Assembly: GCF_030013595.1 (NCBI RefSeq)
Contig: NZ_CP122768.1
Direction: 5' to 3' (one strand)
Source: Escherichia coli
Lineage (GTDB): Bacteria > Pseudomonadota > Gammaproteobacteria > Enterobacterales > Enterobacteriaceae
Length of the DNA stretch: 64,000 nucleotides
Shown in pieces: positions 31,948-34,079 of this stretch; the first letter of the stretch is position 1; each line of letters begins with the position of its first letter. The notes beneath the pieces are model-generated. The model was not told where the DNA came from. It worked only from the letters and a program-made list of their open reading frames with translations, and did no database searches. The translations under genes and the position numbers were made by a program.

Positions 31948-32370
31948 ATGAACTCACTACGTTATTTTGATTTTGGTGCTGCCCGCCCCGTTTTGTTATT
32001 AATTGCCCGTATCGCCGTCATCTTAATTTTCATTATTTTTGGTTTTCCCAAAATGATGGGCTTTGACGGTACGGTCCAATATATGGCCTCGCTGGGCGCG
32101 CCGATGCCGATGCTGGCAGCTATTATTGCGGTAGTTATGGAAGTGCCCGCCGCGATATTAATCGTGCTTGGCTTTTTCACCCGTCCGCTGGCGGTGCTGT
32201 TTATTTTCTACACGCTGGGTACGGCGGTGATTGGTCACCATTACTGGGATATGACCGGCGATGCGGTTGGGCCAAATATGATTAATTTCTGGAAGAATGT
32301 CAGTATCGCTGGCGCATTCCTGCTGTTGGCAATTACCGGGCCGGGGGCAATTTCTCTCGATCGGCGTTAG
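31948..32370 (+). CDS. yphA: DoxX family inner membrane protein YphA
   Basis: ORF track 31903..32370; start trimmed to [15 protein letters not shown] (140 aa). Confidence 0.88.
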
Positions 32371-32378
32371 GAAAGATG

Positions 32379-32396
32379 CCGGATGCGGCGTGAACT
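32379..32396. repeat. left half of a REP palindromic unit (gccggatgcggcgtgaac), split by the IS insertion
   Basis: Joined with 33828-33844 it reconstitutes GCCGGATGCGGCGTGAACGCCTTATCCGGCC, the E. coli REP consensus as I recall it. Confidence 0.85.
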
Positions 32397-32437
32397 GAAC
32401 TGCACCCCAAATGTTGGACATAATCTGACATCTGAAG

Positions 32438-32968
32438 GTGCAGTTTATGAAACATTCATTTGAAGTAAAACTTGCCGCTGTAAATCATTACCTGGCTGGT
32501 CATGCAGGCATCATTTCTACGGCAAAACTCTTTCAACTTTCTCACACCAGCCTCTCACACTGGATTAATCTTTTTCTTCTTCACGGTCCTCGTGCACTGG
32601 ATTGCAGACACAAGCGTAGCTATTCTCCTGAAGATAAACTTTGCGTGGTTCTTTATGCTCTCGGGCATTCTGAGTCTCTACCCCGGGTAGCTGCCCGGTT
32701 TAACATTCCCAGCCACAACACGGTTAAAAACTGGATAAAAGGCTACCGCAAATCTGGTAATGAGGCCTTTATCAGGCGCAGGAAGGAGAAAAGCATGACC
32801 CGTTCTGATGATACCCATGAAAACGAGGCAAACATGACGCCGGAAGAGATGAAGAATGAGCTGCGTTATCTTCGCGCAGAAAATGCATATCTGAAAGCCA
32901 TGCAGGAGCATCTCCTGGAAAAAAAGCGCCAGGAGCTGGAGAAAAAACGAAAGTCATCCGGAGCCTGA
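32438..32968 (+). CDS. IS3-family transposase OrfA (HTH DNA-binding, leucine-zipper region)
   Basis: ORF track 176 aa; C-terminal heptad-like LRYLRAENAYLKAMQEHLLEKK. Confidence 0.85.
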   Translation: MQFMKHSFEVKLAAVNHYLAGHAGIISTAKLFQLSHTSLSHWINLFLLHGPRALDCRHKRSYSPEDKLCVVLYALGHSESLPRVAARFNIPSHNTVKNWIKGYRKSGNEAFIRRRKEKSMTRSDDTHENEANMTPEEMKNELRYLRAENAYLKAMQEHLLEKKRQELEKKRKSSGA

Positions 32969-33795
32969 GGTGCGGACACTGCCAGTCTGACCTGTTAAAG
33001 GCTGCAGGGCTGGCCAGAAGCACGCTGTACTACCAGCTGTCACTGCAGAAGGCTAAGGACAAGTATGCTGATGTGAAACAGCTCATAGCCTCCATCTTCC
33101 ATGAACACCGGGGATGTTATGGGTACCGGCGGATCCATTGTGAGCTTCAGAAAAGAGGTCTTAAGTTCAGTGGCAAAACGGTGCGAAAACTGATGCAACA
33201 GCTCGGCCTGAAGTCTCCTGTGCGCCTGAAGAAATACCGGTCTTACCGGGGAAATATGGGACTCGCTGCAGAAAATATCCTTCAGCGGCAGTTCAAAGCG
33301 GAAGCTCCCTGTGAGAAATGGGTGACAGATATCACCGAATTCAGGGCTGGCGGACAAAAACTGTACCTGTCCCCGATACTTGATTTGTTTAACGGGGAAA
33401 TCGTGGCGTGGGAAACTGCCTGCAGGCCTACAGAGGAGCTGGTGAAGCGGATGTTAAATAAGGGGCTGGAAAGCCTTGCTGAAGGGGAGAAACCGCTGCT
33501 CCACAGTGATCAAGGATGGCATTACCGGATAAAAAGTTATCAGTCCGCCCTGGCGGACAGAGGGTTAGTGCAGAGCATGTCGCGCAAGGGCAACTGCCTT
33601 GATAATGCGGTAATGGAGAACTTCTTTGGTCACCTGAAAGAAGAAATGTACTATCGCCGGGACTACAGAAATGTAGAAGAGCTGGAAAATGCCGTTAACG
33701 AATACATAACTTACTGGAATCAAAAAAGAATAAAACTCAGTCTTGGGGGACTCAGTCCGGTAGAATACCGGACTGAGCATCAAAAAGCCGGTTAA
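32860..33795 (+). CDS. IS3-family transposase OrfB (DDE integrase/RNase H fold); expressed as OrfAB fusion by frameshift
   Basis: ORF track 33073..33795 (240 aa, GTG start); frame open upstream to 32860 overlapping orfA; DDE-type motifs (WVTDITEF..., HSDQGWHY, ...). Confidence 0.85.
   Translation, partial: AALSSRRKCISESHAGASPGKKAPGAGEKTKVIRSLRCGHCQSDLLKAAGLARSTLYYQLSLQKAKDKYADVKQLIASIFHEHRGCYGYRRIHCELQKRGLKFSGKTVRKLMQQLGLKSPVRLKKYRSYRGNMGLAAENILQRQFKAEAPCEKWVTDITEFRAGGQKLYLSPILDLFNGEIVAWETACRPTEELVKRMLNKGLESLAEGEKPLLHSDQGWHYRIKSYQSALADRGLVQSMSRKGNCLDNAVMENFFGHLKEEMYYRRDYRNVEELENAVNEYITYWNQKRIKLSLGGLSPVEYRTEHQKAG
32920..32926 (+). promoter_or_regulatory. programmed -1 ribosomal frameshift site A_AAA_AAG joining orfA to orfB
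   Basis: Heptamer a-aaa-aag in orfA phase at 32920-32926; orfB frame (-1) is open from 32860. Confidence 0.7.
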
Positions 33796-33827
33796 CTGAA
33801 ACTGTCCAGGTTTTGGGGTTCAGTTCA

Positions 33828-33844
33828 GAACGCCTTATCCGGCC
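33828..33844. repeat. right half of the split REP (gaacgccttatccggcc)
   Basis: See 32379-32396. Confidence 0.85.
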
Positions 33845-33851
33845 ACTCAGC

Positions 33852-34052
33852 TCACTTCTTCGGTTGATCCTTTTTCGGCCTGTCGTCGTCATCGTCCCAC
33901 TTATCGTTGAAATCACGATGCGGGGGAAGCTCCGGCTTGTTGGCGAGAAATTTCTTATGGTCGACGCGCTTGAGATCTTTAATCACGTTCAGCAGGACGC
34001 CTACCAAAAAGACAATCACCAGAATCCACCAATATTTAGCCAGCCAGTCCAT
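33852..34052 (-). CDS. ypfN: small protein YpfN (UPF0370)
   Basis: ORF track 33852..34076; start trimmed to [21 protein letters not shown] (66 aa). Confidence 0.85.
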
Positions 34053-34079
34053 GCTTATTTCCTCTTGCAGAACCACTCA

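Follow-up and report, generated by a model that had tools for sequence, protein, structure and literature searches.

Why does yphA stand beside ypfN and dapE in a strain of Escherichia coli, with an insertion sequence (IS) between them? The arrangement occurs in a stretch of 64,000 nucleotides of contig NZ_CP122768.1 (assembly GCF_030013595.1), hereafter the window. A preliminary description, made from the letters alone, had read it as a synteny break caused, most simply, by an inversion of about 80 kb relative to K-12, with the IS at the breakpoint. Our analysis supports this reading: with a probability of roughly 0.7, an inversion of the ypfH...yphA segment, produced by homologous recombination between two inverted copies of IS1397, has one of its two junctions in the window. 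In this lineage the inverted segment would measure about 97.5 kb, as against 80.8 kb in the coordinates of K-12. The IS and the synteny break are located where they had been placed; the end given for the region, 34076, is an upstream GTG of the ypfN open reading frame (ORF), and ypfN itself occupies 33852-34052.

Two distant blocks are joined in opposite orientation

The window was compared with 5426 complete E. coli genomes, to which all counts below refer. The nearest were HCP5S3_I2 (NZ_CM149870.1; from pig faeces in the UK) and its twin, LCP30S3_I5. Positions 1-32395 match the minus strand of HCP5S3_I2 without gaps (99.944% identity, 18 mismatches), while positions 33828-56910 match its plus strand, again without gaps (99.926%, 17 mismatches). 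The plus strand is also matched by positions 58240-63456 (99.962%). In HCP5S3_I2 the two junction points lie at 1,408,718 and 1,506,288, 97,570 bp apart, in the order yphB/yphA ... ypfH/ypfN. The possibility, raised beforehand, that yphA and ypfN/dapE are in fact neighbours in K-12 does not hold in MG1655: there ypfN ends at 2,592,962 and yphA at 2,673,768, on the same strand, and the 80.8 kb between them agree with the size first proposed. The gene orders read from the sequence, ispG...hcaD-yphA on the left and ypfN-dapE-yffB-acrD-narQ...eut on the right, both have collinear annotated matches in the relative, in the opposite relative orientation that had been claimed. The whole left half is collinear, which places the second breakpoint outside the window, as expected. 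The parts of the window on which the argument rests are as follows.

1-32395, plus strand: left collinear block, the visible 32.4 kb of the putatively inverted segment (ispG' - rodZ - rlmN - ndk - pbpC - yfhM - sseA - sseB - pepB - isc/hsc - suhB - csiE - hca operon - yphA)
30649-31851, plus strand: hcaD, an ORF that maps onto annotated hcaD in HCP5S3_I2
31948-32370, plus strand: yphA (DoxX family), final gene of the left block, from its translation and the annotated yphA beneath the match
32378-32395, plus strand: left half of a palindrome, GCCGGATGCGGCGTGAAC, from the repetitive extragenic palindrome (REP) between yphA and yphB
32392-32395, plus strand: GAAC, left copy of the 4-bp flanking repeat (REP loop), read from the sequence
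32396-33827, plus strand: IS1397, 1432 bp
32447-32968, plus strand: orfA of IS1397 (helix-turn-helix), from its translation, with a weak N-terminal match to NF033516
32971-33795, plus strand: orfB of IS1397, the DDE transposase part, in the -1 frame relative to orfA and open to 33795
33828-33844, plus strand: right half of a REP palindrome, GAACGCCTTATCCGGCC, from the ypfH/ypfN REP; its first 4 bp are the right GAAC repeat
33852-34052, minus strand: ypfN, with W58R relative to the nearest relative
34080-35207, minus strand: dapE, an ORF with a match to the annotated relative
33828-56910, plus strand: right collinear block, outside the inverted segment, with a gap-free match to HCP5S3_I2 (ypfN - dapE - yffB - acrD - narQ - aegA - nudK - ypfG - tkt - tal - maeB - eutS...eutJ')

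Every reference has the two blocks on opposite strands, which calls for a join of the inversion type and rules out a deletion. A chimera of two strains was likewise rejected, as both blocks are more than 99.9% identical to one rare lineage, whereas other genomes reach at most 98.9%. Hence, the break is a rearrangement junction of the inversion type with the IS at the breakpoint, as the preliminary description had it; the simple inversion that it also proposed is the simplest topology and not a demonstrated one. The synteny break is a deterministic structural feature and not a statistical signal.

The guanine-cytosine (GC) skew of the plus strand changes sign across the junction, from -0.043 in the left block to +0.025 in the right block, and its cumulative minimum falls near the junction. 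This agrees with what is expected when a head-to-head join connects two parts of one replichore whose composition has not yet re-equilibrated. HCP5S3_I2 retains the canonical order with no insertion in either REP, and it has IS1397 at other sites (the junction probes gave 7 matching places). Together with the identity of 99.93-99.96% on both sides, this indicates that the change is recent and that the element was present in the lineage. In the same comparison, nudK (43336-43911) and eutE (55071-56474) were intact in the window and had internal stops in HCP5S3_I2, where they are annotated as pseudogenes; HCP5S3_I2 is therefore not ancestral to the source strain.

The element at the junction is IS1397

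The IS of the window is 98-99.6% identical, at the nucleotide level and over its full length, to copies with the RefSeq annotation 'IS3-like element IS1397 family transposase', which confirms its earlier naming as IS1397. It occurs once in the window. Its terminal inverted repeats, TGAACTGCACCCCAAA... and ...TTTGGGGTTCAGTTCA, have TG...CA ends. An IS3-type slippery heptamer, A AAA AAG, lies inside orfA at 32920-32926, and orfB matches the NCBIfam model NF033516 (IS3 family transposase) with 324.6 bits, the cutoff being 160. The OrfAB span (32447-33795) measures 1349 nt, which equals the length of the coding sequences annotated in RefSeq with a 'programmed frameshift' (e.g., that of strain SK1402). 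By every tested feature, namely identity, frames, ends and insertion in a REP loop, the element is IS1397.

IS1397 insertion makes a target duplication of 3-4 bp. The window copy has all the traits of the known system: two overlapping frames, the A AAA AAG site for the -1 shift, TG...CA ends, insertion in a REP loop and a 4-bp flanking repeat. The difference lies in its flanks, which come from two different REPs, while the element itself is no different; this copy is thus presumably a recombinant of two copies. PMC1525189, citing Bachellier 1997, Clement 1999, and Wilde 2001 and 2003, describes IS1397 as an IS of E. coli specific for REPs, or palindromic units.

The flanks of IS1397 derive from two REPs

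The left flank of the element reads yphA-TAG-gaaagat-GCCGGATGCGGCGTGAAC, and the right flank reads GAACGCCTTATCCGGCC-actcagctca... followed by the ypfN stop. Together, the two flanks rebuild a REP, GCCGGATGCGGCGT-GAAC-GCCTTATCCGGCC, with GAAC on each side of the IS. In HCP5S3_I2 both sites are IS-free REPs between convergent genes, GCCGGATGCGGCGTGAACGCCTTATCCGGC at yphA/yphB and GCCGGATGTGGCGTGAACGCCTTATCCGGCC at ypfH/ypfN. These REPs are mutually inverted in the chromosome and 29 of their 30 bp are identical. At the sole position that separates them, the left half-REP of the window has the C of the yphA/yphB site; the right half-REP runs on into the flank of the ypfH/ypfN site (actcagctc...).

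Both ancestral REP loops read GTGAAC in this lineage, and the IS is flanked by GAAC/GAAC. Because both loops contain GAAC, this pair of repeats is expected under every model, even after an exchange between two ISs. Each breakpoint lies in a spacer where the 3' ends of convergent genes meet, which leaves all genes and operons intact; the flanking mRNAs lose no more than half of their 3' REP hairpin each.

A probable crossover between two inverted IS1397 copies

Homologous recombination between IS copies in inverted orientation is a classical mechanism of inversion, and IS-bounded rearrangements reportedly occur in long-term E. coli evolution lines. Applied to this locus, the mechanism would start from two insertions of IS1397, which is specific for REP loops, one into the yphA/yphB REP and, separately, one into the nearly identical ypfH/ypfN REP. 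The two IS copies would be inverted as well, since the REPs are mutually inverted in the chromosome. A single RecA-type crossover between the inverted 1.4-kb copies would then flip everything between them. It would leave one hybrid IS1397 at yphA/ypfN, the junction of the window, and a second one at ypfH/yphB, expected outside the window, some 65 kb left of its first position. The predicted anatomy of this reciprocal junction is ypfH - ...CATCATGGCCGGATGTGGCGTGAAC - IS1397 - GAACGCCTTATCCGGCATTTTATAAATTACAG - yphB(reverse). For this genome, we infer the second IS copy and the crossover from the hybrid flanks and from the arrangements found in other strains.

Recombination between ISs is favored by a junction that falls exactly in a REP loop on both sides, with half-REPs from two different sites. 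As in classical inversions of this kind, an IS occupies the exact breakpoint, the joined blocks have opposite orientations and both breakpoints lie between genes. The present case differs in that the IS is REP-specific and in that identical REP loops erase the diagnostic exchange of duplications; in addition, the inversion would lie within one replichore and be asymmetric.

Both steps of insertion occur independently in other genomes. IS1397 was found in the yphA/yphB REP of 58 of the 5426 genomes and in the ypfH/ypfN REP of six, in each case in the same orientation as in the window, and all six of the latter are simple insertions. One genome, SK1402 (NZ_AP046545.1), has both REPs occupied. 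Its copies lie on opposite strands, yphA-IS-yphB at 1,395,020-1,396,368 and ypfH-IS-ypfN at 1,469,373-1,470,721, and are thereby inverted, about 73 kb apart, in a chromosome of normal gene order. SK1402 is the exact substrate that the two-IS model predicts, and one crossover would turn it into the arrangement of the window. It shares with the model IS1397 at both REPs in mutually inverted positions, and it differs from the window in its canonical gene order. Its insertions are independent of those in the lineage of the window, as their loop repeats (GTGA and TAAC vs. GAAC) and positions differ; the background is about 98% identical.

The yphA-IS-ypfN junction itself was found in none of the 5426 complete genomes (coverage of at least 80%), and an IS-free yphA-REP-ypfN junction was likewise present in none. 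No inversion with the ypfH/ypfN partner was detected in this set, and exact-protein look-ups of YphB, YpfH and YphA returned canonical contexts or other rearrangements only.

The yphA/yphB REP is the endpoint of other inversions

Rearranged genomes were sought by comparing the positions of the yphA-IS and IS-yphB joints genome by genome. In eight of the 58 genomes with IS1397 at the yphA/yphB REP, the two joints were far apart and on opposite strands. The partner was an IS1397 at kgtP/rrfG in EC36, RIVM_C029670, RIVM_C036204, RIVM_C040348, RIVM_C040753 and HG994850/1 (spans of about 54-99 kb) and an IS1397 at lacA/codA, 2.3 Mb away, in GABEEC10. These inversions share with that of the window the element, the REP and the orientation of the yphA-IS joint, and they differ from it in the partner REP.

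A further genome, GCA_030347985.1, additional to these eight, provides a fully resolved example. Its partner is the arsC/hda REP, the span is about 72 kb, and both reciprocal junctions, yphB-IS-hda-uraA-upp and hcaD-yphA-IS-arsC-bepA, lie on one 4.69-Mb contig. The flanking repeats are exchanged: one copy is bordered by GAAC...GCA and its counterpart by GCA...GAAC, a textbook sign that two ISs already in place have recombined. As far as the end of the IS, the sister assembly GCA_030346565.1 shows 99.98% identity, and its order, yphB-IS-yphA, is not inverted. A literature search returned no report of IS1397-mediated inversions; they are present in public genomes, even if unremarked.

The kgtP/rrfG spacer of RIVM_C029670 and EC36 has a further peculiarity. 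A frameshifted IS110-family element ('RNA-guided transposase'; L033 5388-6150 in RIVM_C029670, L035 5388-6354 in EC36) directly adjoins IS1397, and IS100 is inserted nearby, so that several REP-associated ISs are piled up in a single spacer.

Alternative explanations

Some observations weigh against an inversion through two IS1397 copies. The reciprocal ypfH-IS-yphB junction lies outside the window and was not seen. The yphA/ypfN junction is shared by no other genome and is thus without an independent assembly that confirms it. The nearest relative lacks both of the needed IS copies, hence two insertions and a crossover would have to be fitted in since the split (about 4 differences per 10 kb). 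Finally, swapped target-site duplications, the usual proof of such an event, would be uninformative at this junction; we dropped the flanking repeats as proof of an IS-IS exchange, given that both loops read GTGAAC in this lineage. The uniqueness of the junction could also point to an assembly artefact or to a mixed population, in which IS1397 occupies both REPs of a chromosome that is not, or only partly, inverted and the assembler took the wrong path. Two identical inverted repeats of 1.4 kb offer two graph paths that short reads cannot distinguish, and SK1402 demonstrates that uninverted genomes with both ISs exist. Against this, the contig spans three IS copies, among them two IS10 elements with 100% identity that it crosses correctly, and is otherwise collinear with the relative, which argues for a repeat-resolving assembly and suggests long reads. 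Moreover, real inversions bounded by IS1397 depart from the yphA/yphB REP in several complete genomes. We therefore consider an artefact unlikely. The same SK1402 arrangement bears on a one-step event, in which the transposase of a single IS1397 at yphA/yphB attacked the ypfH/ypfN REP and produced the inversion and the second copy together. The outcome would not differ from the observed arrangement, with an IS at both junctions and a target repeat from the REP loop; both frames of the transposase are intact, and a single resident copy is a plausible start, as yphA/yphB is occupied about ten times more often than ypfH/ypfN (58 vs. 6). However, IS3-family elements move by copy-out/paste-in via a circular intermediate, a mode that is not known to give replicative inversions. 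In addition, the double-IS precursor has been observed, and each junction of GCA_030347985.1 carries a complete repeat from a different prior insertion (GAAC, GCA). Such a single step is accordingly rather improbable.

The preliminary description had named, beside recombination between ISs, recombination between the two inverted REPs, after which IS1397 would have inserted into the hybrid REP at the junction of the window only. The REPs are indeed inverted and nearly identical (29/30 bp), and PMC1525189 cites REP-REP recombination in F'128 amplification and at lambda bio junctions. Breakpoints in REPs are what the present case shares with those events; the difference is that a 1.4-kb IS in the REP supplies far more homology. 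The crossover between REPs would be confined to a stretch of 21 identical bases on the right-hand side of the only mismatch. A length of 21 bp is below the usual minimum for efficient RecA recombination. Moreover, the window junction itself carries the IS, the IS-free junction is missing from all 5426 genomes, and a later insertion into exactly that REP would be a coincidence. Of the two mechanisms first put forward, recombination between ISs is strongly favored, given the SK1402 precursor, the count of zero for an IS-free junction and the other IS1397 inversions at the same REP; the route through bare REPs is highly improbable. A more complex history, such as an inverted duplication or a shuffle with three breakpoints that involved several IS1397 copies, is suggested by the single visible junction, by the existence of IS1397-rich genomes (up to 26-40 matching places per genome) and by the range of the yphA/yphB REP, which recombines with at least four different partners. 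Both blocks are, however, collinear and appear to be single-copy for about 30 kb on each side, and a simple inversion is the most economical account and the topology of the resolved example GCA_030347985.1, which makes a complex rearrangement very unlikely.

Implications of the probable inversion

If the ypfH...yphA segment was inverted through IS1397, most of its strongly expressed genes, which as judged from the K-12 map are normally co-directional with replication, would now be head-on to it. They comprise isc/hsc, ndk, rlmN, rodZ and ispG, to which hisS, der and guaBA are added outside the window. Such an orientation fits the rarity and the apparent recency of the arrangement. The reversal of about 97 kb with essential, highly expressed operons (isc/hsc, ispG, hisS, guaBA) would offer a natural test of the cost of head-on transcription.

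Short REP palindromes are numerous in E. coli, and a REP-specific IS converts them into portable 1.4-kb homologies that are able to flip large segments. The IS1397-occupied yphA/yphB REP is a recurrent inversion endpoint (at least four partner REPs, from 54 kb to 2.3 Mb), and the intra-replichore flip of isc/hsc, ispG, ndk-rlmN and neighbouring operons might be a reversible population polymorphism with an effect on fitness or expression instead of a neutral accident; we regard such a polymorphism as very unlikely. The yphA/ypfN junction is new among the complete genomes compared, whereas IS-mediated inversion is well known and opens no new question. In genome comparison and assembly quality control, the junction should be flagged as one that needs long-read support.

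Other differences within the window

The right part of the window contains two 100% identical copies of IS10 (1329 bp), in inverted orientation, at 56911-58239 and 63457-64000, the second running off the right end. Both are absent from HCP5S3_I2. The first interrupts eutJ, with a 9-bp duplication (GGCGTAGTG), and the second has its start within eutB. The two inside ends (CTGAGAGATCCCC) are turned towards one another, with the outside ends (CTGATGAATCCCC) directed away. The pair thus brackets eutJ'-eutG-eutH-eutA-eutB' in the geometry of Tn10 and forms a potential composite transposon. The two insertions inactivate the eut operon.

YpfN carries an arginine in place of tryptophan 58 (W58R; T at 33881 vs. 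A), 54 bp from the IS, relative to both the nearest relative and the common allele. An exact-protein look-up returned the same variant in unrelated lineages that are about 98.2% identical, indicating that the change is recurrent and not strain-specific. In the left block, 10 of the 18 differences from HCP5S3_I2 cluster within 144 bp (12300-12443). This interval lies in the first copy of a 570-bp tandem repeat of sseB'/timP (11921-12488 and 12602-13166). All ten clustered bases equal those of the second repeat copy, which indicates that they form a gene-conversion tract and not a set of point mutations.

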